DNA of 64,000 bases from an uncultured Gammaproteobacteria bacterium (GCA_964344485.1 CAYFNF010000005.1:23455-87454), one strand, 5' to 3'. Shown: positions 5,777-34,371, counted from the stretch's first letter. Translations and numbers: made by a program. The notes: a model not told the origin generated them from the letters alone.

Positions 5777-5782
5777 GTCTAT

Positions 5783-5811
5783 AGTATAATTGAAATTATG
5801 GAAAAAGTCAA
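5783..5811 (-). promoter_or_regulatory. Putative yidC promoter (TTGACT, 17 bp, TATACT); transcript likely leaderless
   Basis: Minus-strand TTGACT (5806-5811), 17-nt spacer, TATACT (5783-5788), ATG 7 nt downstream. Confidence 0.4.
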
Positions 5812-5873
5812 CGCGTCCGCACAACCGTTTGCGGCAATATTTAACTATATCTGATAAAAAAGGGCCTTCGACT

Positions 5874-6398
5874 CTACTTCGTTCGTTGGTCTTCGTGTTG
5901 TGCCTCCGGGGGCCACGATCCGAATCGCCGAGCGATCGCTGCTTGTACTGGTTCGCTGACCTCTTCCATTGGCCAGTGGTAGTATTGAGCACGGTAGTGT
6001 GCACTGGGGCACTCCACTCGTATACTCAACCATCGTTCAGGATTGTCGCTAGCGCGAGCAACCTCTACCAGTGCCTCATCGGTTTCGACTGGCCAAAGCA
6101 CAAGCCTATCGAAGATCGCATTCTTGAGCGTGTACATGCTGGAGACCGTGCTGTTATTGAACCGCAAGCGGCGCAAGCAGATCTGCAAGCCGTACAGCAT
6201 GGAGCACAGGAGCGTGAGTGTTCCAGACCTGGTTGGCGGGTTCCACCGCTCACTTCGCAATACGCCAGCTGCTTCGCCGGCATGCGTTCCAAGCCTGTGC
6301 AGCACCTCCCTGTTCGGATTGTGGCTGACGAGCAGCCCCTCTCTTGAAGCGTGGTCGAAGGCTCTCTCACACCGCTGCAGCACCGTCATTCCGTTCAC
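5874..6398 (-). CDS. Islet B: hypothetical protein (174 aa, GC-rich)
   Basis: GGAGGTG RBS just upstream (plus 6402-6408). GTG start at 6398 or ATG at 6389. Globular-looking sequence (DRLVLWPVETDEALVEVARASDNPERWLSIRVECPSAHYRAQYYHWP). GC ~57% against ~40% host. The other-frame ORFs are shadows. Confidence 0.5.
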   Translation of the reverse strand: MNGMTVLQRCERAFDHASREGLLVSHNPNREVLHRLGTHAGEAAGVLRSERWNPPTRSGTLTLLCSMLYGLQICLRRLRFNNSTVSSMYTLKNAIFDRLVLWPVETDEALVEVARASDNPERWLSIRVECPSAHYRAQYYHWPMEEVSEPVQAAIARRFGSWPPEAQHEDQRTK

Positions 6399-6484
6399 TG
6401 CACCTCCGCGTTGAATCTACATGGTGTTATGAGAAAGCGATCCTACACTAATGAATCTCACGACTATTGTCAATACTCTACTGT

Positions 6485-6520
6485 AAAACAAAAACAAATC
6501 CCCCTCAGTGACGAGGGGGA
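6485..6520 (-). terminator. Rho-independent terminator of the giant surface-protein gene
   Basis: tccccctc-agtgac-gaggggga 8-bp stem (6499-6520), followed on the minus strand by a T-rich tract (plus 6483-6498 gtaaaacaaaaacaaa). Confidence 0.6.
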
Positions 6521-6538
6521 CTGTATGACGTGAACGAT

Positions 6539-9500
6539 CTACTCTTGAACGATGAATAAACCAGACTTGGCAAACGCAGTACTATTTGCTTTTGGCTTCT
6601 TTGTGCTACGCGCCCGTACTTTTACGCGAATGGTCTTTCCGACGTCTGCTGATTGAATAGTCAGTCGTTTTCGTTGCAACTTCTTCTTGGCCTTCATCTT
6701 AAAGGTATGCTTCTTCTTATACGCCTTCTTACCGAATTTGAATGGAATAGCTTTGTTACTCTTATCCACGACCTTGATAACTGCTCTCAGCTGTTTTCTT
6801 CGTGGGCGTTGAGTGAAGCGCATAGTGAATGACCCTGTCTCGTCCTCATTCACTACTTTATTAGTTACTCGAACCTTTCGAGGAATCAGCGGTTTAGTTC
6901 TTAGCGAAAGGAAATCTGTCCAATCACTTTGAATAGAACCAGAGACTGCTCGTACCCGCACTTTGTAAGCGGTATTCGCAGTACGCTTCAAGATCACCTT
7001 GTTTTTCTTTGAAGTAGAATAGGTTTTTTTCTTCTTCTTTCCCTTCCACAGCTGCACCTTGTATCCAGTCGCTCCGGTCACTGCGTCCCACTTCACTTTG
7101 AATGACTTTGCTTTTCGCAGTTTCTTCACTGAACGAAGATTCTCCGGTGTGCTGAGCTCTGCCTCAGTCGAAGCAGTGCTACGAGATGAAGTGGTAATCG
7201 CAAATGTACCAAATTTAGATACATTTGCAGTGACAGTGCTGGCATCTGAGTTTACCACTGCTCCGGTGACGTCCTTCCATGACGTTCCATCGTACACTGC
7301 AATAGTGATATCATCTGCCTCCACACCTGCGTCACTCAACTGAGATGCGGTATATGGAAGGGTAATTGCAACAGCGCTATTGAACTTCGTAACCTTTGAA
7401 TTATTACTGTCCAGCACTTCTGCACGGTATCCATACGACAGCACTTGATGAGAAGACGAGCTCGGAATTTCTGAAGTAGGGGTGACCACTCCAGTCATAG
7501 TGTCTTCGGAAGACTTGGTAGAGTACGCTGGTAGAACAAACTTGGCTCCATCAGAGAAGTTGAATACCTGCTGAGTAGAAGAACTAAACGATTTGCGTTG
7601 TGAAGCTGGTAATGTAGTGGTTGCGCTCGCTACATTGAATGAAATACCAGCTGCAGAGATCCCGGTGGCTGCACTACCACTAAAGCTAAAGTCCATCGTC
7701 TCAGTTGCTTCATCTACTGTGAGCGCCACGGTTCCAGAATCATGTGCGACTCCGTCATCGTCGTCATAGGTTGCGCGTAGTGTCCAATCTTCCCCCTGAA
7801 TTACTTGCAACGAGTATGCACCGCTAGCGTCGGTCTCTGTGCTCGTCTGTGCACCATCAGATGAAAATGCACCTACTAATGCACCTTCTATTGCGTTGCT
7901 GCTTGAATCAGTCACTGTGCCAGAAATAGTAGCGTCAGCTTCTCGAGCGACAAAGCTAAGGTCTAAAGAATCGCCGCTTGCAATAATCACAGTCTGAGAC
8001 TCGGGGTTCAAGTAACTCGACCCATCAGGAACATTGACTGTAACCGTATACGTGCCTGCGGGAAGGTCTTTGGTGAATGCGCCATTAGTGTCTGTATTCA
8101 CGGAAGCAGATACTGTCGTGGAAGACAACACTGCAGTTGCGCCATCAATTGCTGTGTCATCCGGCGCTGTTAGTGTTCCGCCGATAGTCGCATCTGCTGC
8201 AACAAGTTCGAAGTCAACAGTTGCAGAGTCACCGGATGCTAATACCACTGAGTTGTCAGTTGAAGGTATTGGATAGACATCATACCCCTCGGGTGTATAG
8301 AAATTCACCGTCCAGTTTCCAGGTGCTACATCTAACTGATAGGTACTGGACCACGCGTCTGTACATGCATATCCGTTCCCACCGTTGTCTGCACAGACTG
8401 TTGCATAGAATCCAGCGGCACTGGTAAATCCTGTTATCGTTCCAGTGATTGTTGCGTCATTCTCTGCTGCCCATATTCCCACATCAACGGTTTCTGTGGA
8501 TGCTACATCGATAGTAGCAGACACTGGCGCTTCTGGAGATGAGTCAGAGAACGTGCCAGAGTCCATAATTGTATAGTCATTGTTGTAGTAATCCAGGTAC
8601 GCTTGAAGTGTATACCCTCCTTCTGGAGATGCAGGAACATCTAGTTCAAAGTAGGAGTTCTCTACCCAGCCCCACATCGCGTTACTATAGAAGTCAGCGG
8701 TACGGCCTCCGGTACCAGTAGCAACAGTCACAAATCCGTTTACGCCTGGAATGATCTCCCCTGCCTGTGCGTGCCCTTCTGCATATCGGAAGTATCCTTT
8801 CAGCTGTGCGTCTGCGACTGCAAAGGTAAAGTTCACTCCTGATGTAGTTGTATTCTCTGTTGCTTCGATAACCTGCGTTCCTTCTAGAGAAACATAGGTA
8901 ATTCCTGTGCCGGTGCTACTAGAACTCGTACCATCCGATGTTGGGCCCTCAGCAACTACGGAATATGTTTCATATCCGTCATACTTGTCACCTTCATCAT
9001 ACCCATCTCCGCCTTCGTATCCATCGCCCCCATCATACTCATCTCCGCCTTCGTACCCGTCACCACCTTCTGAAGACGAGGAGCAGTTATCACCGCTCGT
9101 TCCTGAAGGATAGCTCTGTACATACCACGTGCCTGGAGTCACATTTGCTGTATAGGATCCGTCTTGATCAGTAGTAGCATCAAACCAGTCACCACCGTTC
9201 GTCTTATACCCCCACACCCATTGGCAACCAATTCCGGCTCCTTCAGAATCGCGGACGTAACCGGAAACCACTGCATTTCTATCCAACAGTGTCATATCCA
9301 CTTCTTTGGTTTCTTGCGAACCAATAGTTACCAGTACATCATTTGGCGCACCTTGCTCACAGCTCGTTTGATATGCAAATGCGCTGACACTGTACGTTCC
9401 TGCCGGAAGGCTGAGCTCCGCAACGCCGCTACTGACATCTGCCCATTGCCATACCGTGTCTGAATTCACGCTGACTCCAGCGCCAGAGCTGACTAGCCCG

Positions 9501-14471: not shown

Positions 14472-17063
14472 TTACTCAAGCGCTTCAAGTGACTGCTGCA
14501 GAGCGTCGCGCTCAGCTTCGCGCTCCTTCTTGGACTCCTCTGTCTGCTGAATTACTTGCTCAGGTGCGTTCTCAGTAAACTTCTTGTTCTTCAGTTTTTT
14601 CTCTACTTGCGCGATATATTGTGAAATATGTTTTATCTCTTTTTCAATACGCTGCTTCTCTTTTTCTACATTAATAACCCCATCGAGTGGCAGAACGAGT
14701 TTCACTTCCCCGGTTACAACGGTCGCGCTATGAGTAAACTCTTTTTCTTTCACGAACTCTACACGTGCAAGATGCTGAATGAGTGCTGTATGTGATTCTT
14801 CCATTCCAGGATCTACTACCTCTAACTGCTTCCCTGGTTCAATGCGATACTCACGGCGGATATTTCGAATCGACGTGATCAACTCTTGTATTGTACTGAA
14901 CTGCTTCTCTATCTCTGGCTGAATCTTGCTAGTCTCTGCTGTTGGCCACTCTTGAACAATGAGCAAACTCTCTTTTCCCATCTGTTTCCACAGAACCTCT
15001 GTAACAAAAGGTATATACGGATGAGTAAGGATCACTACGCTCTCTAAGACTTGCCGCGCTACAGTATTATTCGGCTGGATCTTTGATGCTTCAATATACC
15101 AGTCTGCGAACTCATGCCATACGAAATCATACAGCCTCTCTGCTGCTTGGCTGAATTGATACTGTTCAAAATCATTAGTTACTTCCTGCGTTACTTGATT
15201 GACTCGAGATAAGATCCACTGATCTGCAAGCGTTAATTCTTGCGTATCGTCCGTTGGTTCCTGAGATAAGACATATCGAGAGATGTTCCAGAGTTTGTTG
15301 ACGAAATTTCTCGCGTCTTCCACTTTCTCTTCATAGAAACGTGCATCATTCCCTGGCGCAATGCCTTTGAGCAAACTCAAACGCAGTGCATCTGTTCCAT
15401 ACTTTTTACAAATTTCTATTGGATCAATACCGTTGCCTGCGGACTTGGAGAATTTTTTCCCTTCCTTATCGCGCAGAATACCGTGCACATATACATTATG
15501 GAATGGGATATCGTCCAATGCGTACGTTGACATCAAAATCATTCGTGCAAGCCAAAGAAAAATTATCTCATACCCCATCTGCATCCAGCTCGTTGAGTGA
15601 TAGGTTCGGAGATCATCACTCTGCTCTGGCCACCCTAGCGTGGAGAACGTCCACATTCCTGAAGAGAACCACGTATCTAAGGTATCTTCATCTTGCTGCC
15701 AGTCCTTTCCTGGAGATTCTGTGCCGACCTGTATGTCATCGCCGTTATACCATACTGGAATGCGGTGCCCCCACCAGATCTGCCGACTAATACACCAGTC
15801 GCGGAGATTATCGATCCAATGCAAGTACGTTTTATGGAATCGCTCTGGAATGATGATCACTTGCCTCTCTTTGTCTTGCTTATGACCAGTAGTCACTGCG
15901 TCACGCATTAACTCTTTTAAGGATTTTCCGCGACCAGGGATCTCTTTATTCACATCCACGAACCATTGGTCCATAGGTAACGCTTCAACTACGTCCCCAA
16001 ACCGATCAGAAGTACCGACCGAATGTGTAATCTCTTCATTGTTTGTAATTAATCCTTGCTTCTCTAACCATGCAACAAGCTTCTCTCGCGCTTCTATGGT
16101 GGTGAGTCCTTCATACTCCTTCCCCGCAGCAGATGTCATCAGCCCATCCTCCCCAATCACCTTTATTAATCCAATTTCTGGCTTCTTCTGGTACATCTCA
16201 AAATCCGCTTGGCTATGCGCTGGTGTCACGCCCACTGCACCAGTCCCGTACTCTGGGTCCACCGTATCGTCTGCGATGATAGTTATTGCAAGAGGGGTCT
16301 CAGCACCGATATCTACGGTATACTGCTTGCCGACATACTCTTTATACCGCTTATCATCAGGGTGTACTGCTACTGCAGTATCACCGAGCTTGGTCTCTGG
16401 ACGCGTAGTTGCAATCTCAATTGGGAAGTCTTTTGAGTATTTAAATGTATACACCGTAGTTTGCTGGTCCACATACACGAGTTCATCTTCTGAACACGTA
16501 GACTGTCCTTTAACTGACCAATTCACAACGCGATATCCGCGATAGATCAGTCCATCGTCGTACATGAGACGGAACATCTCATTCACAGCAGCTGAACGCT
16601 CTTCATCAAACGTGTACGCTAGGCGAGACCAGTCACAGCTGGTACCCATCTTGCGCACCTGTGACAGAATAGTACCTTTACACTCTTCTGCATAATCACG
16701 AATAATCTCTAATAACTTCTCGCGGCCGTAATGCTGCCGTGGGTTATCTATGCCCTTCTTTTTTTCATTGTCTTCTACACGAGCTTGAGTGGCCACTGCA
16801 GCGTGGTCTGTGCCTGGAACCAATAGAGCTTTCTTTCCTCGCATGCGCTGATACCGCAACTCTACATCCATTAGTGAATTTTCCAGTGCATGTCCCAAAT
16901 GCAACACTCCAGTCACATTTGGAGGAGGCATCATAATACAAAACGGCTCTTTTCGGTCACCTGGCAAGTTGTCTGGATTGAAAAATCCCGACTCTTCCCA
17001 GGTCGTATATATATCATCTTCGTATTTGTTTGCGTTATACGCTTTTTCCATAGTATTTGACAT
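14472..17063 (-). CDS. valS: Valine--tRNA ligase
   Basis: PPPNVTGVLHLGHA (HIGH), KFSKS (KMSKS), editing domain, C-terminal coiled coil typical of ValS. I put the start at the MSNTMEKAYN Met (17063) rather than the longer ORF start. Confidence 0.9.
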   Translation of the reverse strand: MSNTMEKAYNANKYEDDIYTTWEESGFFNPDNLPGDRKEPFCIMMPPPNVTGVLHLGHALENSLMDVELRYQRMRGKKALLVPGTDHAAVATQARVEDNEKKKGIDNPRQHYGREKLLEIIRDYAEECKGTILSQVRKMGTSCDWSRLAYTFDEERSAAVNEMFRLMYDDGLIYRGYRVVNWSVKGQSTCSEDELVYVDQQTTVYTFKYSKDFPIEIATTRPETKLGDTAVAVHPDDKRYKEYVGKQYTVDIGAETPLAITIIADDTVDPEYGTGAVGVTPAHSQADFEMYQKKPEIGLIKVIGEDGLMTSAAGKEYEGLTTIEAREKLVAWLEKQGLITNNEEITHSVGTSDRFGDVVEALPMDQWFVDVNKEIPGRGKSLKELMRDAVTTGHKQDKERQVIIIPERFHKTYLHWIDNLRDWCISRQIWWGHRIPVWYNGDDIQVGTESPGKDWQQDEDTLDTWFSSGMWTFSTLGWPEQSDDLRTYHSTSWMQMGYEIIFLWLARMILMSTYALDDIPFHNVYVHGILRDKEGKKFSKSAGNGIDPIEICKKYGTDALRLSLLKGIAPGNDARFYEEKVEDARNFVNKLWNISRYVLSQEPTDDTQELTLADQWILSRVNQVTQEVTNDFEQYQFSQAAERLYDFVWHEFADWYIEASKIQPNNTVARQVLESVVILTHPYIPFVTEVLWKQMGKESLLIVQEWPTAETSKIQPEIEKQFSTIQELITSIRNIRREYRIEPGKQLEVVDPGMEESHTALIQHLARVEFVKEKEFTHSATVVTGEVKLVLPLDGVINVEKEKQRIEKEIKHISQYIAQVEKKLKNKKFTENAPEQVIQQTEESKKEREAERDALQQSLEALE

Positions 17064-17127
17064 AAGTATGATTATTTCGTTAAGTATATGTACCTCATAT
17101 CCCAATGACGGGAACTGGAGGGTGAAA

Positions 17128-17697
17128 GTGAGTGACTTTGTCAGGCGCGTGACCACGGTCAAGGCGCCTCATGGTGAATACAGGTTCACGCTGCAGAGCA
17201 CGGTGCAGCGTCGCGTCGAAGACCTCGAGGGGGCCGAAGCGCAGGCTGCGGTTCGTCGCATGCTGGAAGCGCTCGGAGTCTCCGAGGAACACGCCAACCA
17301 GATGCGTACGAACGACCTGCGAAGTGCATGCGAGGTCAAGCCGTTCCAGATCGATCATCCGGCGCAAGACGCGTACATCAACATGTCGGATCCGGCTCGT
17401 GCATCGGAACGAGTGGCCGTACCTCCCTCAGGTGGCTGCGTGCGTGCAGGTAGCGGTGCTCAAGTCGACGTGCCGCCTGGTTGTTCCCGTGTGGGCGACC
17501 AAGTGGCACCGCAGATGCCACCGCCAGCGCTCGTAGCTCTCTCGCAGAGTGCTCGGCCTGCTACCGCAGAACCGCACCTCCCGCCGGATGCGCTCCGAGA
17601 CGGCCAAGCCGTACCCGTACTCGACCCACAGCCTGTGGGACGATGGGCGCGCTTCTGCGCCTGGTGGCACCGACAGCGTCGGTCATGGGGTTGGTAG
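17128..17697 (+). CDS. Islet C: hypothetical protein (GC-rich; C-terminal half low-complexity, possibly frameshifted)
   Basis: GGAGG at 17117-17121, 6 nt before GTG 17128. First ~100 aa look globular (EYRFTLQSTVQRRVEDLEGAEAQAAVRRMLEALGVSEEHANQMRTNDLRSACEV). The remainder is Pro/Ala-rich. Several overlapping shadow ORFs exist, so strand and frame are uncertain. Confidence 0.35.
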   Translation: MSDFVRRVTTVKAPHGEYRFTLQSTVQRRVEDLEGAEAQAAVRRMLEALGVSEEHANQMRTNDLRSACEVKPFQIDHPAQDAYINMSDPARASERVAVPPSGGCVRAGSGAQVDVPPGCSRVGDQVAPQMPPPALVALSQSARPATAEPHLPPDALRDGQAVPVLDPQPVGRWARFCAWWHRQRRSWGW

Positions 17698-25813: not shown

Positions 25814-25963
25814 CAGCGCTCACTTCAGAAAGCCCCTGCCAACGCGCAGGGGTTTTTTAATTTGCACAGACTCCACAGGATTGACAAATGCATCCTGTGC
25901 TGTATACTTGGACGATTTCCTCAAGAAGAGGTAAATCAGAGCCCCAAGTCCAGGAGGGACACT

Positions 25964-26420
25964 ATGGCTCGAATCTTGATGCTCGCCGCGCTCCTGCTCG
26001 TCACCGCCTGCAAAGACAAAGGTGACACCGACCGGGGCCTGCTGGCCATCAACCACATGGGCTACACGGTCAAGGTCTGGGTCTACCAGTCCTACGACTC
26101 CACCGGAGAGCAACAGCTGTGCGTGGACCAGGACCGAACAGCAGCTCACGAGCTCCTCAACGCTCCAGGACCAGGAAGAAGATGACCTGGAGTGGGATCC
26201 CGAGGACGAGGTCGACCTGTCCGCGAACTGCGACACGGAAGACACGTCCACAGTCTGCCCCGAGGAGTTCACCCCGTGCATCATCCTGCGTGTCACCGAC
26301 ACAGAGGGCAACTGGGACGTCAAGTCCGACCCAGCCATGTGGTACGACGGCATCATCTGCCTGATCACACCCGCAGACAGCGGCGACTCCGAGCAAGGCG
26401 ACGGCATCACCTGCGGCTGA
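25964..26420 (+). pseudogene. Islet D: lipoprotein gene split by a frameshift (N-terminal lipobox part 25964-26185, acidic Cys-rich C-terminal part to 26420)
   Basis: AGGAGG (25952-25957), 6 nt, ATG 25964. MARILMLAALLLVTAC lipobox. The frame ends at 26185, while the +1 frame continues with the protein-like LQDQEEDDLEWDPEDEVDLSANCDTEDTSTVCPEEF...ITCG to 26420. Both halves are GC-rich. Confidence 0.45.
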
Positions 26421-26480
26421 ACCAACGACTGGAACAGCTCGCACCCAGCGTGCATGAATCCGTCGGGCGCTAGAACGCAC

Positions 26481-26517
26481 GCGCCACGGACCAATGCTCT
26501 TTTTTTATTGCCGAAAC
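26481..26517 (+). repeat. 38-nt direct repeat, copy 1 (gcgccacggaccaatgctctttttttattgccgaaac)
   Basis: Near-identical to 31473-31510 (1 indel, 1 substitution). Both copies are on the plus strand. Confidence 0.7.
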
Positions 26518-26556
26518 ACCCTTCGTATCACGCTGAACGTTCCACCGATCTCCCGA

Positions 26557-27480
26557 CTAACTTTGGATTGCTGCTGTGAAGTCTTGTTTGCTTATATTTC
26601 CCCCGGATACAATACAAACAGCCGTATTGTATTTTTTCTCATCTTTATTGACAGCAGCATACGCTATTGCTCCTGCACCTTCAACGATCTCCCCTGTCTT
26701 CTCATATATCTCTTTCATGCTGCTCTTAATTTCTTCTTCTGTGAGTAATAAATAGTAATCCACATAGTGCTTAACCAGATCAAATGTAATAGTCTGTGGG
26801 TTTAAATTCACTGCTAGCTTCTCTGCCTGGGATGTGCGTACTTCTACTGGAGTGATTTTTTCATACTCTACAGCAGACACCATAGCGTGCATTGCTTGCG
26901 GTTGCACCCCAATAACTTGAATATCAGATTTCAATTTCTTAATAGCGATCGCGATACCTGCAATTAAACCGCCACCGCCAATTGGTACATACACCGCGCC
27001 TATGTCAGGTAGTTGCTCAAGCAACTCTAGCCCAATCGTTCCCTGTCCCGCAACCACCTGCTTATCATTGTACGGATGAATAAAGTGAATTCCTTCCTTT
27101 TTCGCGTACTCTTGCGCATATTGCTCGGTTTCAGCAAATGTATCAAGGCCATGCATAACAGTGTCAACAAGCTCTTTCATTTTTGCTTCACCTGCCTTTG
27201 GGGGATTCTTAATCATCATGCAAATGGTTTCAATTCCCAACTGTTTCCCAATATACCCAACTGCAAAACCGTGCGTCCCTAAAGCGGAAGTCATCACCAC
27301 CTTATCAGTCATGGCAGTCATGGCACTAGCTGCGCCTCTTATTTTAAACCCTTTCACAACCGGTTGCGTATTTTCCAACTTTAAAAACACCCCATCTGAT
27401 ATTTCATTTACTGCTGTCTTGTTAATATAGGGTTCAATCCTTTTTTTTGCTTGTTGTATGTCCGTATACTCGACTATCAT
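26557..27480 (-). CDS. PLP-dependent threonine dehydratase / serine racemase family enzyme (fold type II)
   Basis: KGFKIRGA PLP-lysine motif, glycine-rich GGGGLIAG loop, SGGN near the C-terminus. 307 aa (catabolic TdcB / EutB-like size). Confidence 0.8.
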   Translation of the reverse strand: MIVEYTDIQQAKKRIEPYINKTAVNEISDGVFLKLENTQPVVKGFKIRGAASAMTAMTDKVVMTSALGTHGFAVGYIGKQLGIETICMMIKNPPKAGEAKMKELVDTVMHGLDTFAETEQYAQEYAKKEGIHFIHPYNDKQVVAGQGTIGLELLEQLPDIGAVYVPIGGGGLIAGIAIAIKKLKSDIQVIGVQPQAMHAMVSAVEYEKITPVEVRTSQAEKLAVNLNPQTITFDLVKHYVDYYLLLTEEEIKSSMKEIYEKTGEIVEGAGAIAYAAVNKDEKKYNTAVCIVSGGNISKQDFTAAIQS

Positions 27481-28406
27481 ATTGATATCTTACTTATAAT
27501 ACTCGCGGCTAGTGCAGCGTCTGTTACTGGCAATCCATGATGCTTGAATACTATACGCATATTCTTCTCCACTGTATCATCTTTGTTTATCACCGATCCT
27601 ATCTCGCCTAATACCTCCACTGTATAATTCTCTTGTTTCGCAATATTCACTTCATCATACATAGGTAAATTCTTTTTCGCATCCAAAATGACAGCTGAAC
27701 TTCCAATTGTTTCTGCTGGAATCTCTTGGTCATTCTTCATAGCTCCCACACCAATAATTACAACATCATCTTTTACATCACCGTGCTTAAACACAGGGGT
27801 TTTTGACGTTGTTGCACAGACAATAACATCTGCTTTATGTACTGCTTGCTTGGAATCATCTGCTGCAATCACGGTGCCTTGCTCCACTTGTGATTCTATA
27901 TAAACAGCGGCTTCCTCACGGTGTTCTTTTGTGGGACTATAAAGAGTGATGTCTTGAATGCTTGGAAACAACTGTGCCAAGATAACACCGTGTGACCGTC
28001 CTTGCACTCCAGTTCCTAAGATTGCCAATCGTTCTGGTTCATTCGCGAGATGTTTTACTCCAACAGCTGAAGAAAGTGCTGTTCGAACTGACGCAAAATA
28101 CCTTCCTTCAATAATAGCTAAACAGACACCGGTTGTACTATTAAATACAAGTATATATGGATGCACACTAGGTAGATCGCGTTGCTTATTATTCCTAAAA
28201 TCACTTGCTTGTTTTGAAATAAAAAAATCTGTCCCAGTGATATACGAAGGAAATGAATAGAACATCCCATCATTTACTTCCATGGAAGTAGTTTCAGGAG
28301 TAACTGTATTACCCGCAGAAAAATCAGCGTAACTTTGTTCTATAAATGTATACGCTTCTTTAATGTCGACAATTTCCTCTACTTCTTTTTCTGTGATAAT
28401 TCTCAT
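27477..28406 (-). CDS. Ornithine cyclodeaminase / mu-crystallin family protein
   Basis: Rossmann LAILGTGVQGRSHG motif and OCD family architecture. ATGA overlap with the downstream PLP gene. Confidence 0.8.
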   Translation of the reverse strand: MRIITEKEVEEIVDIKEAYTFIEQSYADFSAGNTVTPETTSMEVNDGMFYSFPSYITGTDFFISKQASDFRNNKQRDLPSVHPYILVFNSTTGVCLAIIEGRYFASVRTALSSAVGVKHLANEPERLAILGTGVQGRSHGVILAQLFPSIQDITLYSPTKEHREEAAVYIESQVEQGTVIAADDSKQAVHKADVIVCATTSKTPVFKHGDVKDDVVIIGVGAMKNDQEIPAETIGSSAVILDAKKNLPMYDEVNIAKQENYTVEVLGEIGSVINKDDTVEKNMRIVFKHHGLPVTDAALAASIISKISI

Positions 28407-29542
28407 TACACTTTGTGCATACTAATATCTTGTATGATTCGCTGTAATTCCTTTAATGCGGTGTCTAGTTCTTCCTTAGTTGTAAAACGTGATAACGATA
28501 ATCTAATATTACCATGTATGTACTCCATAGGGCAGCGAATCGCTTTCATAACATGAGAAACATCCGTTGAGCTGGATGAGCATGCTGATCCCGTAGAGAC
28601 ATAGATTCCTTTCTTATCTAGTTCCTCTCGCACCTGCTCGCCCTCTATCATAAATAGCGATAAGTTAATGTTATTACATAAACGCTTCTCTCCTTCAGGG
28701 CCGTTCAATCGAACTTTATCATTCTGCAAGATTTTCTTAATAAATACATCACGCAATTCGGTAATCTGCTTAATTCCTAGAGTTGATGCATTGTTTACAG
28801 CTGCTGCGAAACCAACAATGCCGGCAATGTTTTCAGTTGAACTTCTCACTCCTGCTTCTTGTCCACCACCATGCAGCAACGGATCTAATTGAATTCCTTC
28901 TTTCATGTACAACGCACCTACTCCCTTTGGACCATGAATTTTGTGCGCATTGATAGTCATCATGTCGATCCCGTCCGAAGTCACATTGATAGGGACCTTA
29001 GTAAAGCTCTGACAAGCGTCTGTATGAAACAATACGTCCTTACTTTTACAGATCTTACTTATCTCTTGTAGATCTTGAATGGTTCCAATCTCATTATTCC
29101 CATGAATAATAGAGACAACCATAGTCTTGTCGGTAATTGCAGCTGACAATTCTCCACAGTCTATAAATCCTTGCTCGTCAACTTCCAAATAGGTTACTTT
29201 CGCTCCTTGCCCTTCTAACCATTCACACGTATGTAAGATACAATCATGCTCAATGGCGGTTGTTATAATATGATCCTTCTCCGGATAATGACGGAAAAAT
29301 AAGCCTTTCAAAGCGAGGTTGTTTGCCTCAGTGCCACTTCCTGTAAAGAAGAGCTCTGTGGCTTGCGCTCCAATGCTTGCAGCGATTGTAGACCTAGCTT
29401 GATCGATCGCTTTTTTTGCTGCTTGCCCCATCTTATGAACTGAGGAAGCGTTACCGTACTCATCTTCGAGATACCGGTCCATCTCCTCTTTCACTCGCGG
29501 ATCAACTATGGTTGTCGCTGCGTTGTCAAGATATATTCTCAT
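28406..29542 (-). CDS. Class-V aminotransferase / cysteine desulfurase-like (NifS/IscS/SufS family)
   Basis: SGHKIHGPKGVGALYMK PLP-lysine motif, GGGQE, C-terminal RLSLSRFTT. Confidence 0.85.
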   Translation of the reverse strand: MRIYLDNAATTIVDPRVKEEMDRYLEDEYGNASSVHKMGQAAKKAIDQARSTIAASIGAQATELFFTGSGTEANNLALKGLFFRHYPEKDHIITTAIEHDCILHTCEWLEGQGAKVTYLEVDEQGFIDCGELSAAITDKTMVVSIIHGNNEIGTIQDLQEISKICKSKDVLFHTDACQSFTKVPINVTSDGIDMMTINAHKIHGPKGVGALYMKEGIQLDPLLHGGGQEAGVRSSTENIAGIVGFAAAVNNASTLGIKQITELRDVFIKKILQNDKVRLNGPEGEKRLCNNINLSLFMIEGEQVREELDKKGIYVSTGSACSSSSTDVSHVMKAIRCPMEYIHGNIRLSLSRFTTKEELDTALKELQRIIQDISMHKV

Positions 29543-30282
29543 ACGGATTGCATATCAAAACTTGTTACCACCTGGTCTTTTAACATATAGACATTGATAA
29601 TGTTTAAATTATCATAGAAATACTTTGCGACCACCCGCCCTTTTTCTATTGCAAAATAGTTAGGAATATTTATTTCATTTTCAGAATCCACATAGTAAAA
29701 ATTTAAGCTTGAGGTGAATCCATCTTGCTTATGTTGATATGCATACGCGGACATAATTAATGGACATGCTGCAATACCGTACTTATCATTCGGATTCGGC
29801 CGCGACAATGTAATACGCCGGCCATCAACGGGATTGATAAACCAATAAGCATCACTTTTTAATTTAATATAATCAGCTTTGGCTTTTATTTTTTTTAGGA
29901 GTTCTTTTTTTCCGCGATTTCGCATGTGCTTCTCCCAATATATATTTAGCTCTTCATGCGGGATCTCATATAAATCCATCAAGTCTATATATTCAGGAGG
30001 GGGGACATGATTTTCTATTACCTCATCTGATTTTATATTGCATACTTTCTCCTTTGCATCACATACACCACCCATATTATTAATCAAAACACCTAGACCT
30101 ACCTTCTTTCCTTTTTTCTTTGCTAAAGAATACATCTTTAGCGCTGCCTCGAATGAATCTATTGTTCCTTGATTCATATTCGCGCTTCCGTCAGACATCA
30201 CCATATAGTGTCCGCCAGTAATTATCATATTGTCTGTTAGGCTCTTCTCAAATTGCTCTTGTTTAAACTTATTCATATTCAT
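29539..30282 (-). CDS. Hypothetical protein, first gene of the 4-gene operon
   Basis: 247 aa. No recognised motif beyond TGGHYMVMSDGS. Its stop overlaps the aminotransferase start by 4 nt. Confidence 0.55.
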   Translation of the reverse strand: MNMNKFKQEQFEKSLTDNMIITGGHYMVMSDGSANMNQGTIDSFEAALKMYSLAKKKGKKVGLGVLINNMGGVCDAKEKVCNIKSDEVIENHVPPPEYIDLMDLYEIPHEELNIYWEKHMRNRGKKELLKKIKAKADYIKLKSDAYWFINPVDGRRITLSRPNPNDKYGIAACPLIMSAYAYQHKQDGFTSSLNFYYVDSENEINIPNYFAIEKGRVVAKYFYDNLNIINVYMLKDQVVTSFDMQSV

Positions 30283-30407
30283 TTATTAATCCAATAATAT
30301 TATCAATTCGTAAAAAAAATGTCAAGTGGAATTACGTTTAGCAAAAAATAGTATTTATATTTTTGTATTTTGCTCTATACAGTTAAATAAAATGTGATAA
30401 TCTGCTA

Positions 30408-31469
30408 TTGATTTTGACAAATGCACTATTTCTTGCTATTATTATGACAATACCTCAAAAAATAAAAATAGAAATTAGCACAATGCTCGATCTTGACCGA
30501 TTAGATAGGCAAATACTCTCACTTCTAGACCAAAATGGTAGGTTTTCGGTTGCTGAAATAGCGCGTCATCTAAATGTATCGCGACAGCTAGTAAATGTTC
30601 GATTAAAAAAGCTAGAAGCGAATAACGCGATACTCGGTTATTATACCATCTTTGATAGTGGAAAGGTTGGTTACTATATATATCGAGCGTTAGTTCGTCT
30701 ACTAAATATCTCTCCTCAACAAAGAGAAGAGATCTTAGCATATCTACAACACCACCCACATATCATGTGGTTGGGTGAAATTGGTGGAAGCTGGGATATT
30801 ATGATGAATTTTATCTGCCGTGGTCATATAGACTTTAATGAGATAGCAGAAGAAATATCAGAGAAGTTTGGTGCGTTCATAAATAAGATGGAAATTCTTG
30901 TATATGTTGATATTCATGACTATTCTCGTTCGTACCTTGATCCAGAATATCCAGTACGGAAAGAGTTCTACCATCGTATGCAGGAAGACAAATCAATAGA
31001 GCTAGATGATTTAGATAGAAATATTATCGGAATGATTTCCACTAATGCGCGCATTGAGTACACGGCATTAGGCAATCAACTTCAGGTATCAAGAAATACC
31101 GTAAAAAAAAGGATTGATCAATTAATACAGAACAAAGTAATACTAGGTTTTCGCGCCTTTCCTAATATTGCGGAGATAGGATATCAATCTCATGTATTAT
31201 TGCTTGAAATAACAAAACTAGATCCTGAGAGAGAAACAGAACTATACTATTTCCTACAAATGATTCCGCAAGTAACATTTGTAGTGAAGCACTTAGAACG
31301 ATGGAAGGTAAGCGTGGAAATTGAGACAGTTTCAAATCGCGAATATCAAGAGATCCTGCAAAAAATTCGCTCCAACTTTAGTGACATCATCAGCGATTAC
31401 GATACCTTCCCACTTCTCAAAGACTTAGTAGTAAATTATTTTCCAAAAGGCATTTTGGAGCAGGGGTAA
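30408..31469 (+). CDS. Tandem Lrp/AsnC-family transcriptional regulator (two HTH_AsnC + RAM modules)
   Basis: LDRLDRQILSLLDQNGRFSVAEIARHLNVSRQLVNVRLKKLE and a second LDDLDRNIIGMISTNARIEYTALGNQLQVSRNTVKKRIDQL HTH. Divergent from the operon. Confidence 0.75.
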   Translation: MILTNALFLAIIMTIPQKIKIEISTMLDLDRLDRQILSLLDQNGRFSVAEIARHLNVSRQLVNVRLKKLEANNAILGYYTIFDSGKVGYYIYRALVRLLNISPQQREEILAYLQHHPHIMWLGEIGGSWDIMMNFICRGHIDFNEIAEEISEKFGAFINKMEILVYVDIHDYSRSYLDPEYPVRKEFYHRMQEDKSIELDDLDRNIIGMISTNARIEYTALGNQLQVSRNTVKKRIDQLIQNKVILGFRAFPNIAEIGYQSHVLLLEITKLDPERETELYYFLQMIPQVTFVVKHLERWKVSVEIETVSNREYQEILQKIRSNFSDIISDYDTFPLLKDLVVNYFPKGILEQG

Positions 31470-31472
31470 ACT

Positions 31473-31510
31473 GCGCCACGGACCAATGCTCTTTTTTTTA
31501 TTTCCGAAAA
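31473..31510 (+). repeat. 38-nt direct repeat, copy 2 (gcgccacggaccaatgctcttttttttatttccgaaaa)
   Basis: Begins 4 nt after the regulator stop codon. See copy 1 at 26481-26517. Confidence 0.7.
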
Positions 31511-31537
31511 AAAACCGTTGTTCCTGAAACAGGAAGC
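31505..31537 (-). terminator. Terminator of the islet E gene (ttcctg-aaa-caggaa then T9 on minus strand)
   Basis: Stem 31521-31535. The minus-strand continuation is caacggttttttttt. Confidence 0.5.
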
Positions 31538-31551
31538 GAACGGTGAGAACG

Positions 31552-31944
31552 CTACGGGGTGGTGTCCGGACGCAGGTCAGCGATACGCTGCTGCGTGGGC
31601 GGATGCATCTCGGTGAGCTCCATGAGGTGCTCCCACACCTCCAAGGTCATGGTCGTGCCGCCCATCAGACCAAGCACGAACTGCTCCTTGGTATTCATCC
31701 GGATGCGGATGTTCAGGTACCGGCCCTGGCGCCAGACCCGAGTGATCGATGCGTAGCTGTACTGCCCGAACATGACCTGATGCAGTACACGCATTTCGAG
31801 GTCGAACACGAAGATGCTGCCTGCATCAGCGTAGATCACGGTCCGTGCTTCTGCACGGAACAGCAGCCAGTCCACGGTGTGGAACGGCCGTACCACGATC
31901 TCGCGGATACCCCGTGCTCCCTTTAGGATGACGTCGTTTGCCAT
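31552..31944 (-). CDS. Islet E: hypothetical protein (130 aa, GC-rich)
   Basis: GGAGGAAG RBS (plus tcctcc 31952-31957), 7 nt before the ATG at 31944. Better amino-acid composition than the antisense 31543..31926 ORF. Confidence 0.5.
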   Translation of the reverse strand: MANDVILKGARGIREIVVRPFHTVDWLLFRAEARTVIYADAGSIFVFDLEMRVLHQVMFGQYSYASITRVWRQGRYLNIRIRMNTKEQFVLGLMGGTTMTLEVWEHLMELTEMHPPTQQRIADLRPDTTP

Positions 31945-31970
31945 TGGCTCTTCCTCCGGTGGTTGCGTAG

Positions 31971-32014
31971 ATAAGCAAAAGCGCCTCCCTGCAGGGAGAC
32001 GCGTTCTTGCTTAT
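31971..32014. promoter_or_regulatory. Long (~19-bp, interrupted) palindromic hairpin upstream of the islet E RBS / downstream of OCD-2
   Basis: ataagcaa-aa-gcgcctccctg|cagggagacgc-gtt-cttgcttat centred on CTGCAG. It could be the OCD-2 terminator or a leader structure analogous to the islet A hairpin. Confidence 0.4.
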
Positions 32015-32214
32015 ACACACGACACATCCACTACAGGGGCTCTGTAGAGGATGAAGATGAAACAAATTGTCTTGTTTGCTTCGTATGCATGCACCTAGTG
32101 TATAGTGCTCAGCATATTTGTCAAATGGGCGTGATTTTGATTCACAATTCGCCACGTTTGCCCCATTATTAAGGCGTAATTGCACTCGCTCGATTTGTTG
32201 TTTCTAACAACACC

Positions 32215-33264
32215 TTACAATACTCTATCCAACGGTGCATATGATGGCTCTTCTGTGTAACAGACAGTCCGCTGCTCTGATTTTAAAAGAGTGAAGAGAT
32301 TTTTTGGGTCGTTCACTAGCGGCAAGACATCAATATGCGTACCGATCCCTTTCTCGTGAAGCAATCGAAGTATTGAGAAGTCAGCTAACGCAAACCCAAC
32401 AGAATCAAAGAGTATTAATTCCTTCCCTTGTCGCCCCTGCTTCTCTCCCTGTACTACTTCCCATAACTCGGAGTACTCTGGCTCGTGCTCCAAGTTTTGA
32501 ATCTCGCCTTCGTGCTTTGTTTGTTCATAGAACTCCACTACGATGCGACTGTTTCTCACTACTTCAGGATCGATCTCGGTCTTGCCTTCACAGTCTCCGC
32601 CCATGGCGTTTATAAACAACCCTTCGTGCTGTTGAATCGCGCTATACGGAAACAGCTCCACGTGTGCTTTTTCACAAATGCAGGTAGTCAGTATGTCTAC
32701 TCCTTTCACTACTTCCTCTCCACTCGAACAAGCGATCAAGTGAACGTCTTTCTCTTTCATGTTCACAGCAAACTTTTTCATTGCTTGTGTATCACGGTCA
32801 TAGTAGCGAATCGTATGAACGTCAAAGAGCTCCAGCATGGCCGTAACCTGGAACTCTGACTGCGCTCCAGTACCAATCAGCCCGAGTACTTGTGCATTCT
32901 TCTTTGCTAAGTACTGTGCTGCGATAGCAGACGTCGCTGCAGTTCGGAACGCTGTCAGAATGGTCATGTCGCAAAACAGCAATGGAAAGCCGGTTTCTAC
33001 ATCCGCGAGCATACCGGTTGCGACAATTGATGACTTCCCAAGCTCAGGATTTCCTGGATGGCCGTTCACGTATTTATACGAATAGAACTGTTCGTCAGCG
33101 CACGGCATAAGCTCGCAGACACCGTGCTTGTAATGCGTGACGTGACGAGGGCTTTTTTTAAATTCCTGCCACCGTTTCAGATCCTGCTCGAGATAGCGGA
33201 TGGCGTCAGTGAGTAGTTTTTCAGTTGTGAGTTGCGCAATATCCTGCGCGGTAATTATTTTCAT
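32215..33264 (-). CDS. Ornithine cyclodeaminase / mu-crystallin family protein, second paralog
   Basis: VLGLIGTGAQSEFQVTAM Rossmann motif, OCD-family length (349 aa). Confidence 0.8.
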   Translation of the reverse strand: MKIITAQDIAQLTTEKLLTDAIRYLEQDLKRWQEFKKSPRHVTHYKHGVCELMPCADEQFYSYKYVNGHPGNPELGKSSIVATGMLADVETGFPLLFCDMTILTAFRTAATSAIAAQYLAKKNAQVLGLIGTGAQSEFQVTAMLELFDVHTIRYYDRDTQAMKKFAVNMKEKDVHLIACSSGEEVVKGVDILTTCICEKAHVELFPYSAIQQHEGLFINAMGGDCEGKTEIDPEVVRNSRIVVEFYEQTKHEGEIQNLEHEPEYSELWEVVQGEKQGRQGKELILFDSVGFALADFSILRLLHEKGIGTHIDVLPLVNDPKNLFTLLKSEQRTVCYTEEPSYAPLDRVL

Positions 33265-33312: not shown

Positions 33313-33611
33313 GAAAAGATGATTATTATATAGTTAACAATTCATACCGCATCCGGGGGGAAATTCGAACACAGGGGGAACTGGCATGGTTCCGTATTCT
33401 GAATACTGTTTTGTGCGGTGTTTGTGATTCATAAGTGCACGTAGTATATACAACGTCATAACTACTGTCAATTATGTGCCTCTCATTGACAGAAACTCCT
33501 GTAATGATACATTCAAATTGAAGTAGCGGTCTTGTAGACTGCAGATAGAAAACGAGGGGGCGTCCCTCTATTTTTGTCTGCAGCACTCAACCGCTGCTAT
33601 CGGGATCATTC

Positions 33612-33989
33612 ATGCATCTGCTTCTACTCGTTCAGACCGCGTGGTACCACCGGAGCCAGGTGGTGCAAGATCGCATTCGCCGACAATTCGACCGCAACGT
33701 GCCAGGCGTCGTCCTGCCTCGGGCCGTGGTCGGAGGTGACGATCAGCTCGACGAAGCGCTCGCTCGCGCCGCGTTCATCACGCTGCTGACCAGCATGACA
33801 GGCGACGCCAGCAGCTTCCAGGTGGTCAGCTACACCCTCGAGCGGCGTGGCGACGACGAGCTGTGCTTCACGTTCGACCTCGAAGAGTCCGGCTGGACTT
33901 TCAAGCGGCCACAGCCTGGTGCGCATCACGTCTCCACCATTCGAGTGCGACTCGTGGACACCAGCACGCTCGCTGTGGTCGAGGCCTGA
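33612..33989 (+). CDS. Islet F: hypothetical protein (125 aa; strand ambiguous)
   Basis: GC-rich ORF. The antisense 33624..33929 ORF also has a GGTGGAG RBS, so the coding strand is unresolved. A plus-oriented hairpin plus T-run (33554-33575) precedes it. Confidence 0.3.
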   Translation: MHLLLLVQTAWYHRSQVVQDRIRRQFDRNVPGVVLPRAVVGGDDQLDEALARAAFITLLTSMTGDASSFQVVSYTLERRGDDELCFTFDLEESGWTFKRPQPGAHHVSTIRVRLVDTSTLAVVEA

Positions 33990-34135
33990 CCCAAGGCTAG
34001 CAGTCCGGGTTCAGACCCACACTGCTCCTTGCAGAGCCGCATCCCACGCGACGCCATTTCTGTACAATCGACGTCTCGGCCTCTCGCGTTCTTTTTTATT
34101 ACAAAGCCGCGCACTTGATGGCGCGGCGCTTGTTG

Positions 34136-34146
34136 GCACCCGCACG
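34136..34146 (+). repeat. Degenerate duplicate of the tRNA-Glu 3-prime segment (gcacccgcacg + gaatcg..cc.gg)
   Basis: 11/11 identical to 34299-34309. About 24 of 29 nt are similar over the T-arm / acceptor 3-prime half. It lies 163 bp from the intact tRNA, at the edge of islet F. Confidence 0.4.
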
Positions 34147-34299
34147 AAGAATCGGTTCCGGGGTTGGCGGTAGCGTGCCGCTGGCACCCTACCGATCGTT
34201 CAGCTGCGCTACGCTTGCTTCACTTCCAACCCTTCAATTTCCCGCCGCAGGATAATTAAAGAAAATCCGCCCCTCTTTGAGGGACGGATTATTCTTAAG

Positions 34300-34371
34300 C
34301 ACCCGCACGGGGAATCGAACCCCGGCTGCCAGGATGAAAACCTGGTGTCCTAACCACTAGACGATGCGGGC
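34300..34371 (-). tRNA. tRNA-Glu (anticodon UUC)
   Basis: Reverse complement: GCCCGCA TC GTCT AGTGGTTAG GACA C CAGG TTTTCAT CCTGG CAGC CGGGG TTCGATT CCCCG TGCGGGT G. Anticodon loop TT-TTC-AT, discriminator G, no CCA. Terminator-like hairpin at 34262-34292. Confidence 0.85.

Follow-up and report, generated by a model that had tools for sequence, protein, structure and literature searches.

Cysteine desulfurase and partner pairs of the B. subtilis NifZ-ThiI, YrvO-MnmA, NifS-NifU and E. coli CsdA-CsdE types are encoded by adjacent chromosomal genes, and the thiolation enzymes TtcA, TtuA/Ncs6 and archaeal ThiI have nucleotide-binding alpha/beta folds of the HUP class. Dedicated pairs of this kind are known for NifS-NifU, for NifZ-ThiI, for YrvO (which supplies MnmA in formation of 2-thiouridine, s2U) and for CsdA-CsdE(/TcdA) (PMC8300815). 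TtcA, TtuA/Ncs6 and archaeal ThiI are ATP-pyrophosphatase thiolation enzymes of the [4Fe-4S]- or three-Cys-dependent kind, with three cysteines conserved and with sulfur supplied through a cysteine desulfurase (PMC5372739). In a quite different pathway, the beta-hydroxyaspartate cycle, a pyridoxal phosphate (PLP) dependent dehydratase, BhcB, produces labile iminosuccinate, which is converted to an amino acid by BhcD, a reductase of the ornithine cyclodeaminase (OCD) family (PMC8166194). Here we describe a five-gene locus that invites comparison with both themes and that lies in a 64,000-nucleotide stretch of DNA (the window) from an uncultured Gammaproteobacteria bacterium (GCA_964344485.1 CAYFNF010000005.1:23455-87454). 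Four overlapping genes called UNK, AT5, OCD1 and PALP face a divergent regulator gene, LRP2. An earlier note on this DNA had placed the five open reading frames (ORFs) correctly and had proposed a compact pathway for an unusual amino acid, built on a fold-II PLP enzyme paired with an OCD-family enzyme. The finding is real, but its centre is not that pair. It is UNK, a member of a previously undescribed protein family with an aminoacyl-tRNA synthetase (aaRS)-like predicted fold, which is tied to a cysteine desulfurase on a mobile, regulated cassette.

The desulfurase is AT5, which had been read as a class-V aminotransferase. It matches Pfam Aminotran_5 (E = 2e-82), scores above the cutoff of the IscS-subfamily model NF002806 (307.8 versus 304) and below that of the NifS equivalog TIGR03402 (461.8 versus 530.75), scores which assign it to the IscS subfamily but to no specific equivalog. 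The best PDB matches are all cysteine desulfurases, and the PLP lysine (Lys201), the active site histidine (His99) and the catalytic cysteine of the GSACSS loop (Cys321) are retained in 30 of 30 full-length UNK-linked orthologs. AT5 is hence best described as a NifS/IscS-type (class I) cysteine desulfurase with a predicted activity of converting cysteine to alanine plus an enzyme-bound persulfide. Its roughly 20 closest relatives are the UNK-linked desulfurases (61–72% identity), after which comes a continuum of NifS homologs of 57–61% identity to AT5, those named by source being labelled DPANN archaea. No IscU or NifU gene was found beside AT5 in any locus examined. AT5 also scored about 450 bits on the PADLOC models of SspA and DndA, models expected to match other IscS-type desulfurases as well, whereas no PADLOC model matched UNK, OCD1 or PALP. 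DNA phosphorothioation of the Dnd/Ssp type was rejected because the partner genes encoding DndB-E or SspB-D are absent beside AT5.

The association of UNK with a desulfurase was established by a neighbourhood survey of 71 loci, these being the window plus 14 genomic and 56 metagenomic loci. In 34 of the 71, AT5 is the gene immediately after UNK, and these pairs span most of the 16 UNK sequence clusters and come from Chlamydiae (Chlamydiales), Verrucomicrobia, Peribacteria and other bacteria of the Candidate Phyla Radiation (CPR), Bdellovibrionota and archaeon-labelled contigs. Pairwise identities of the two proteins co-vary (Pearson 0.93 over 26 loci), and the pairing is kept down to 35–43% identity. 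Among distant UNK-like proteins (E = 1e-12 to 1e-16 to the UNK profile) two of the three having readable context adjoin IscS/NifS-type desulfurases. One locus (L077, 1358-5220) reads UNK-like, LysRS, IscS and the second (L080, 6001-9507) UNK-like, NifS/IscS, aspartate aminotransferase-like; the third (L081, 1-3325) encodes an aldehyde:ferredoxin oxidoreductase (AOR)-like protein, an UNK-like protein and a GNAT protein. Given this survey, the robust partner of UNK is the class-I cysteine desulfurase, and the wider context is that of amino-acid metabolism and Fe-S-type enzyme families.

The survey also returned the full gene order of the window, regulator divergent from UNK-AT5-OCD-PALP; the earlier note had suggested looking for its four-gene part. 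It is present in seven other contigs (L008, L022, L024, L025, L026, L027 and L028) at 45–72% protein identity to the window (40% for the truncated PALP of L026) and within unrelated flanks; near-duplicate pairs (L022/L024, L025/L026 and L027/L028) reduce these to about five distinct versions. Three loci (L007, L021 and L032) have the regulator, UNK and AT5 without OCD and PALP, and in a fourth (L023) the same three genes are visible before the contig is cut off inside AT5. The evolutionary core is UNK plus the desulfurase, which the PLP/OCD pair accompanies as an add-on in a single clade. Taxonomic labels in this set conflict, and those of metagenome-assembled genomes need caution: L007 is labelled Methanosarcinales but its desulfurase is named Woesearchaeota, and L008, labelled Gammaproteobacteria, has a gene content that by eye resembles the CPR window.

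UNK itself gave no match to Pfam, NCBIfam or PADLOC models, and Pfam searches with all 34 aligned members and 10 distant relatives were likewise empty. Against PDB sequences the UNK profile found nothing beyond a chance match (E = 1.1), and no account of UNK or of this system was found in the literature library searched. The family is rare: we found 68 clusters among 5.8e9 proteins, the profile gave 212 matches (only 39 below 1e-30) against 1.84e9 representatives, and UNK is present in 14 of 185,579 species representatives. Database versions start two codons later, at 30276, and have 245 aa, and the exact 247-aa form is absent from the records, so the mechanically called ORF is probably too long at its start.

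The AlphaFold2 model of UNK (pLDDT 90.3, pTM 0.88) was compared with the PDB by Foldseek. All 19 matches with E of 1e-3 or below were class-I aaRS or MshC, the CysRS paralog; they included ArgRS, CysRS, class-I LysRS and MetRS, with E values of 2e-7 to 1e-3 and query-normalised TM scores of about 0.4–0.57. The order of secondary structure elements fits a Rossmann core split by a beta-rich insertion, and the predicted structure thus has the Rossmann-type catalytic fold with inserted connective subdomain that characterizes class-I aaRS and MshC. The chain ends after the fifth core strand, and no anticodon-binding or acceptor-binding domain was found in UNK, the 245–247 residues being the core only. 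As in the cysteine ligase MshC and the cyclodipeptide synthases (CDPS), relatives of the class-I aaRS core that have no tRNA function, the predicted Rossmann core with its beta-rich subdomain would stand alone without an anticodon-binding domain. Unlike MshC and CysRS, UNK has no profile-level similarity to CysRS, lacks a canonical HIGH motif, ends before the position of KMSKS and is much smaller at about 245 aa, and its invariant His and Cys residues are out of register with the demonstrated zinc ligands.

Conservation was computed over 63 full-length UNK sequences, with 16 distant relatives taken separately. His25 (within ITGGH, at the end of strand 1) is conserved in 62 of 62 and Cys173 (within ACPLIM, at the N-terminus of a helix that follows a strand) in 63 of 63, whereas Cys74 and Cys81 are each conserved in 60 of 63. 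Asn37, Gly39, Thr40, Ser43, Glu117 and Asn122 are invariant, and a very basic helix, WEKHxRNRGKK, is also conserved. In the distant relatives His25 and Cys173 are kept in 15 of 16 but Cys74 and Cys81 in only 4 of 16. With TtcA, TtuA and ThiI, UNK would share a nucleotide-binding alpha/beta fold, three conserved cysteines and a desulfurase partner. It differs from them in having neither the SGGxDS PP-loop nor CXXC motifs and in that two of the three cysteines are missing in 12 of the 16 distant relatives.

The UNK locus resembles the dedicated desulfurase and acceptor pairs in that a NifS/IscS-type desulfurase gene lies by that of one specific partner with no general scaffold gene nearby. It differs in that UNK has no sequence kinship to ThiI, MnmA, NifU, CsdE or TcdA and no PP-loop, rhodanese or E1-like domain, that its predicted fold is class-I-aaRS-like, and that the UNK-AT5 pair is rare, mobile and found among amino-acid genes. 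We regard the system as a variant of the dedicated desulfurase and acceptor theme in which the chemistry of the acceptor could be new.

The coding-strand junctions of the four minus-strand genes (Table 1) read ATGA, TAATG and ATGA in gene order. The operon is real, translationally coupled and evolutionarily conserved, and has a divergent double Lrp/AsnC regulator. The regulator had been described as tandem, and the two halves of LRP2 are indeed homologous to one another (25% identity over 133 aa, E = 3e-18). Pfam finds two HTH_AsnC-type stretches (E = 3e-23) and a weak AsnC_trans_reg match (24.1 versus a cutoff of 25), and LRP2 has the AsnC-type helix-turn-helix plus ligand-binding (RAM) domain of Lrp/AsnC proteins, here in duplicate. 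The gene is divergently placed in 12 fetched loci besides the window. ATG 30483 is most likely its start rather than TTG 30408, because the orthologs mostly have 327–332 aa and the best sigma-70-like site, at 30414-30442, lies inside the longer ORF.

Table 1 Coordinates of the cassette genes, candidate promoters and bracketing repeats, counted from the first letter of the window
Feature	Position	Strand	Remarks
PALP	26557..27480	-	307 aa; last gene of the operon
OCD1 (OCD-family)	27477..28406	-	309 aa; 4-nt overlap with PALP (ATGA)
AT5 (Aminotran_5)	28406..29542	-	378 aa; 1-nt overlap with OCD1 and 4-nt overlap with UNK
UNK	29539..30282	-	247 aa; first gene of the operon
LRP2, fused double Lrp/AsnC regulator	30483..31469	+	328 aa from ATG 30483; mechanical ORF 30408-31469 from TTG
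Candidate sigma-70-like promoter, UNK operon	30297..30325	-	TTGACA-17-TAATAT, TG-extended; 10/12 consensus match
Candidate sigma-70-like promoter, regulator	30414..30442	+	TTGACA-17-TATTAT, TG-extended; 11/12 consensus match; overlaps candidate operator box ACAAATGCA
Left direct repeat (GCGCCACGGACCAATGCTCTTTTTTTATTGCCGAAA)	26481..26516	.	40 nt beyond the PALP stop codon
Right direct repeat	31473..31509	.	3 nt after the regulator stop codon; 4992 nt from the left copy

The divergent promoter region (30283-30482) is AT-rich (22% GC). The two candidate promoters of Table 1 are the two best sigma-70-like sites in 26200-31700 as judged by consensus match only, and the total of such sites in that interval is no higher than in shuffled sequences. 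A box, ACAAAYGYA or TTACAAAYGTAA, recurs here and in the orthologous counterparts of this region in four other loci (L007, L022, L023 and L027), and the window copy overlaps the -35 element of the regulator promoter. ACAAAYGYA was observed 6 times versus 0.46 expected, a ratio that is only a lead given that the pattern was derived post hoc from the same sequences. The box is a candidate that may be the Lrp operator. No convincing intrinsic terminator was found downstream of PALP.

Whether the cassette genes arrived as a unit was judged from their surroundings. Two copies of a direct repeat, a perfect 26 nt plus a 17-nt extension (about 36 nt in all), bracket the five genes; these are the only copies in the window, with 0 expected in shuffled sequences, and without the cassette their position would be the gap that separates two small convergent ORFs. 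GC content is 38.4% in the cassette versus 45.9% for the window. Owing to the low GC, the bracketing repeats unique in the window and the five-gene order amid unrelated flanks, block 26481-31509 is considered a self-contained, horizontally acquired cassette. The earlier note had found such an operon unexpected in a reduced genome, a surprise that was well placed for a CPR (Patescibacteria) genome; the operon was acquired by horizontal transfer. The window encodes TsaD, ValRS, VanW, an M23 peptidase, an amidase, YidC, RuvB and QueA, which indicates a bacterial host, and its ValRS is 69% identical to those of Candidatus Kerfeldbacteria and other Patescibacteria, which makes the description "reduced genome" reasonable. 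(The ValRS ORF called mechanically, 14472-17162 on the minus strand, has 896 aa from a TTG versus 863 aa in the database, and its start is probably too long.)

Cassette GC is below that of the host in the window and in L008 but close to it in low-GC contigs (L022 and L007), and the operon copies of the latter two carry desulfurases labelled Woesearchaeota. We infer that the donor was a low-GC organism, possibly an archaeon, and that CPR bacteria were the recipients, and the archaeal labels of the nearest AT5 relatives suggest that the transfer crossed domains. In L032, a second CPR copy whose desulfurase is labelled Uhrbacteria, regulator-UNK-AT5 lies between copies of another direct repeat, about 70 nt long (4166-4237 and 7937-8008), that includes a terminator-like hairpin. 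An IS200-like gene (5489-5920, judged by eye) lies between regulator and UNK, and UNK (5983-6730) is split into two ORFs, which suggests that this cassette is decaying. UNK was not found by tblastn against PLSDB plasmids and INPHARED phages or in a scan of IMG/VR, nor was the 19-nt core of the repeat found in viral contigs.

Three GC-rich stretches of the window (25820-26480, 31510-32100 and 33600-34300) have 52–64% GC versus 46% for the window, and two of the three border directly on the cassette repeats. The ORFs in these stretches all overlap and are of low complexity, and Rfam gave no match. A lipoprotein-like start, MARILMLAALLLVTAC (25862, plus strand), and a plausible 130-aa ORF (31552-31944, minus strand) gave no family match.

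The two genes of the add-on bear out the description of a fold-II PLP enzyme paired with an OCD-family enzyme, as given by Pfam matches to PALP (E = 1.4e-56) and OCD_Mu_crystall (E = 1.8e-40). PALP falls below every equivalog cutoff, those of EutB, BhcB and IlvA included. Its best NCBIfam matches are TdcB (230 versus 453) and Thr/Ser dehydratase (224 versus 371), its best PDB match is TdcB (2gn0) followed by serine racemases, and the PLP lysine of its GFKIRG motif is kept in 8 of 8 orthologs. By these comparisons PALP is a putative short Thr/Ser-dehydratase (TdcB-like) or serine-racemase-like fold-II PLP enzyme. Its identification as canonical IlvA was rejected: it scores 191 versus 577, covers only positions 36-315 of the 508-position profile and is without the C-terminal ACT-like regulatory domain.

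OCD1 likewise misses every NCBIfam equivalog cutoff, and ornithine cyclodeaminase proper was rejected (NF005762, 39.3 versus a cutoff of 350). Its PDB matches are Delta1-pyrroline-2-carboxylate (Pyr2C) reductase (6t3e, 103 bits), alanine dehydrogenase (AlaDH, 1omo), mu-crystallin (CRYM) and iminosuccinate reductase, with cyclodeaminases the weakest. OCD1 is therefore closer to NAD(P)H imine/ketimine reductases and to the alanine dehydrogenase of archaea than to cyclodeaminases. Just outside the cassette, at 32215-33264 (minus strand), lies a gene for a true ornithine cyclodeaminase (NF005762, 392.2 versus 350), followed by a tRNA-Glu gene at 34299-34371; it is unrelated to OCD1 and is beside the module in none of the other loci. 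Together with a PAD_porph (agmatine/arginine deiminase-like) gene at 1425-2705 (minus strand) and an Orn/Arg decarboxylase-like gene at 58266-59723 (minus strand), it suggests that other parts of the window serve the metabolism of arginine, ornithine or polyamines.

In mechanism, the closest parallel to PALP plus OCD1 is BhcB/BhcD, in that a fold-II PLP beta-eliminating enzyme would be coupled to an OCD/mu-crystallin enzyme closest to imine reductases. The likeness is one of "works like" only. PALP scores 161.9 versus 550 on NF045641 and OCD1 81.9 versus 500 on NF045643, there is no aldolase or aspartate-glyoxylate aminotransferase, and the substrates of PALP and OCD1 would probably be Ser, Thr or Cys rather than beta-hydroxyaspartate.

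We propose that the locus is an amino-acid-responsive mobile cassette in which the desulfurase passes sulfur to a new acceptor enzyme, UNK, and a dehydratase/imine-reductase pair handles Ser, Thr and Ala. AT5 would convert L-cysteine to L-alanine and hold the sulfur as a persulfide on Cys321. The sulfur would then be handed to the co-translated UNK, an enzyme of about 245 aa having a class-I-aaRS-like nucleotide-binding-type fold, of which Cys173 at the strand-Cys-helix junction would be the presumed acceptor and His25, Cys74 and Cys81 a putative metal or Fe-S site. UNK may transfer this sulfur to a substrate that it has bound, most likely a small molecule derived from an amino acid rather than tRNA, or simply release it. 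In the clade of the window the add-on would have the TdcB-like PALP beta-eliminate Ser or Thr (or Cys) to a 2-imino acid, which OCD1, acting as an NAD(P)H imine reductase or AlaDH-like enzyme, would convert to Ala or 2-aminobutyrate, or the reverse, and LRP2 would sense an amino acid and turn the operon on or off accordingly. UNK is probably a functional sulfur-receiving partner of AT5 in some form; the scheme as a whole is held tentatively, at a little under an even chance. Small-molecule thiolation, an Fe-S scaffold or carrier and a simple persulfide acceptor for cysteine catabolism seem roughly equal as forms of the UNK reaction, whereas the rarity, regulation and mobility of the family make a role on tRNA less likely.

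Several observations weigh against this proposal. About half of the UNK loci have no adjacent desulfurase. A large desulfurase-less clade (L018, L019, L043, L046, L048, L057, L060-L063, L065, L068 and L070) adjoins genes of a class-I/II aminotransferase plus DUF2769, of AOR, of MttB or of 2-hydroxyacyl-CoA dehydratase, and in L029 and L036 UNK is directly followed by PALP with no desulfurase between. AT5 therefore cannot be strictly necessary for what UNK does. No sequence homology between UNK and a characterized family was detected, and since hhalign comparison of its profile with E. coli CysRS (identical to 1li5_A) and with an alignment of five PDB CysRS gave probabilities of 0.2–0.3%, the relationship to aaRS is one of predicted fold; UNK would be an aaRS-fold protein rather than a demonstrable member of the aaRS family. 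The canonical HIGH, KMSKS and PP-loop (SGGxDS) motifs are missing from the UNK alignment, which shows only ITGGH and NxGTxxSF (the latter in the first helix), so that we can only infer use of ATP. ThrRS follows UNK-AT5 in three divergent loci (L012, L015 and L045) and LysRS occurs in one (L077), hints of a tRNA link that the proposal does not account for. Finally, the role given to PALP and OCD1 comes from family-level similarity, with all equivalog cutoffs missed.

In the desulfurase-less clade the usual order is class-I/II aminotransferase, a Cys-rich DUF2769 protein (86 aa) and then UNK. The alternative is AOR before UNK and MttB after, and genes for a 2-hydroxyacyl-CoA dehydratase and its activator, or else for an FMN/FAD reductase, frequently lie in the vicinity.

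The alternative that survives best is a catabolic or salvage module for C3/C4 amino acids, in which Cys would give Ala plus sulfide, Ser and Thr would give 2-oxo acids, Ala and pyruvate would be interconverted, and UNK would be a persulfide acceptor and releaser that speeds the desulfurase and makes no sulfur product. The Lrp-type regulator fits such a module, as do the proximity of PALP to catabolic TdcB and the match of OCD1 to archaeal AlaDH. The chlamydial loci have the order BrnQ-UNK-AT5, the pair being flanked by BrnQ and SNF amino-acid transporters, and other UNK clades adjoin aminotransferase, AOR and 2-hydroxyacyl-CoA dehydratase, families linked to amino-acid fermentation. However, the known acceptors SufE and CsdE are small, single-Cys proteins, whereas UNK has a large pocket-like set of conserved polar residues and an enzyme-type fold, and all of the substrate assignments are at the level of family. 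We consider this module unlikely as a full account.

Also unlikely in our view is that UNK is a non-orthologous Fe-S scaffold or carrier which, with its own NifS, forms a minimal two-gene Fe-S assembly system transferable between small-genome organisms. His25, Cys74, Cys81 and Cys173 are conserved, and this Cys3-His ligand set resembles that of IscU; UNK adjoins a NifS-type desulfurase with no IscU or NifU nearby, and its hosts are CPR bacteria, Chlamydiae and archaeon-labelled contigs. In the desulfurase-less clade UNK adjoins AOR, 2-hydroxyacyl-CoA dehydratase with its activator, an FMN/Fe-S reductase-like protein and the Cys-rich DUF2769 protein, the first three being families that carry Fe-S clusters. 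Yet Cys74 and Cys81 are the residues missing in 12 of the 16 distant relatives, and the invariant polar residues Asn37, Thr40, Ser43, Glu117 and Asn122 look like a substrate site. Present in only 14 of 185,579 species representatives, UNK is too rare to serve these phyla as their general Fe-S system, and the Lrp regulator, the PALP/OCD genes, the BrnQ transporter and the aminotransferase neighbours would be left unexplained.

A bolder reading, which we rate as rather improbable, sees in UNK the first of a new class of enzymes. On this view UNK would be a minimal protein of class-I aaRS fold which lost HIGH and KMSKS, gained a Cys/His centre and uses sulfur from the dedicated desulfurase on an amino-acid carboxylate or an aminoacyl-tRNA, the pair spreading as a cassette between bacterial and archaeal small-genome symbionts. 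Products might be an amino-acid thiocarboxylate or thio-derivative, or a transformed Thr- or Lys-tRNA, and it is the recurrent ThrRS and LysRS neighbours that hint at this reading.

The same neighbours, ThrRS directly downstream of UNK-AT5 in the three divergent loci and LysRS between the UNK-like gene and IscS in L077, bear on the possibility that UNK is an enzyme acting on tRNA or aminoacyl-tRNA, whether a non-PP-loop analogue of MnmA/ThiI/TtcA, a TcdA-like modifier of N6-threonylcarbamoyladenosine (t6A) or a CDPS-like enzyme, and is served by a dedicated desulfurase. The fold is closest to the cores of class-I aaRS with a weak match to CDPS, the WEKHxRNRGKK helix is very basic and conserved, and precedents exist in the YrvO sulfur used for s2U, in NifZ-ThiI and in CsdA/CsdE for cyclic t6A (ct6A) (PMC8300815). 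Against it, UNK is without an RNA-binding or anticodon domain, PP-loop or KMSKS, and its occurrence is far too sparse and patchy to suit a tRNA modification enzyme; its gene is on a mobile cassette under regulation, in the company of amino-acid transporters and of enzymes of catabolic type, and other UNK clades lie among fermentation genes. This role is distinctly unlikely.

The analogies offered by the earlier note fared worse. EutB/EutC-type ectoine catabolism, or an SbnA/SbnB-type L-2,3-diaminopropionate pathway with an aminotransferase step, was suggested by the adjacent fold-II PLP and OCD-family enzymes, which both systems share with the window, and by an AsnC/Lrp-type regulator, which also lies near the Eut genes. 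Bit scores fall 2- to 5-fold short of the cutoffs of the curated models: PALP scores 204.8 versus 413 (NF005680) and 169.4 versus 413.35 (TIGR02991) for EutB, and OCD1 scores 97.4 versus 471.65 (TIGR02992) for EutC and 110 versus 326.9 (TIGR03944) for SbnB. SbnA (TIGR03945, cutoff 349.95) is not among the 25 best models listed for PALP, cysKM gave 41.7 bits, and the PALP ortholog of L029 gave 46 bits in the SbnA-type test; SbnA is CysK-like whereas PALP is TdcB-like. Among the window ORFs scanned against Pfam there was no match to ectoine hydrolase, DoeB, ectoine-pathway deacetylase or transporter, siderophore or non-ribosomal peptide synthetase families, accessory genes that such pathways have, and the supposed aminotransferase is a cysteine desulfurase. 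These analogies are highly improbable.

Least probable of all, to the point of being negligible, is a coincidental adjacency of housekeeping IscS, IlvA-like and OCD genes with no joint function, for although AT5 is 57–61% identical to a very large and probably housekeeping set of NifS homologs, several labelled DPANN archaea, the same five-gene order in seven other contigs (about five versions) with unrelated flanks argues that the arrangement is not due to chance, and the start/stop overlaps, the UNK-AT5 pairing down to 35–43% identity, the direct repeats and the deviant GC also stand against it. The earlier note had named a canonical IlvA and an IscS among housekeeping neighbours as the signs of such a coincidence; AT5 did prove IscS/NifS-like, but it has no IscU/NifU housekeeping neighbours, PALP is not IlvA and the adjacency is conserved.

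The desulfurase-to-UNK proposal is readily approached, as the cassette comprises five genes in 5 kb and needs no recognizable accessory factors, and hence is practical for heterologous expression. The direct repeats and low GC are concrete evidence of the route by which a regulated metabolic module reached an ultra-small symbiont. The UNK family is tied to sulfur mobilization in lineages (CPR bacteria, Chlamydiae and archaeon-labelled contigs) for which few partners in sulfur trafficking are known. Should UNK prove to be a new sulfur acceptor, thiolation enzyme or Fe-S scaffold, it would be a new branch among the few known partners of cysteine desulfurases and also a new offshoot of the class-I aaRS fold.

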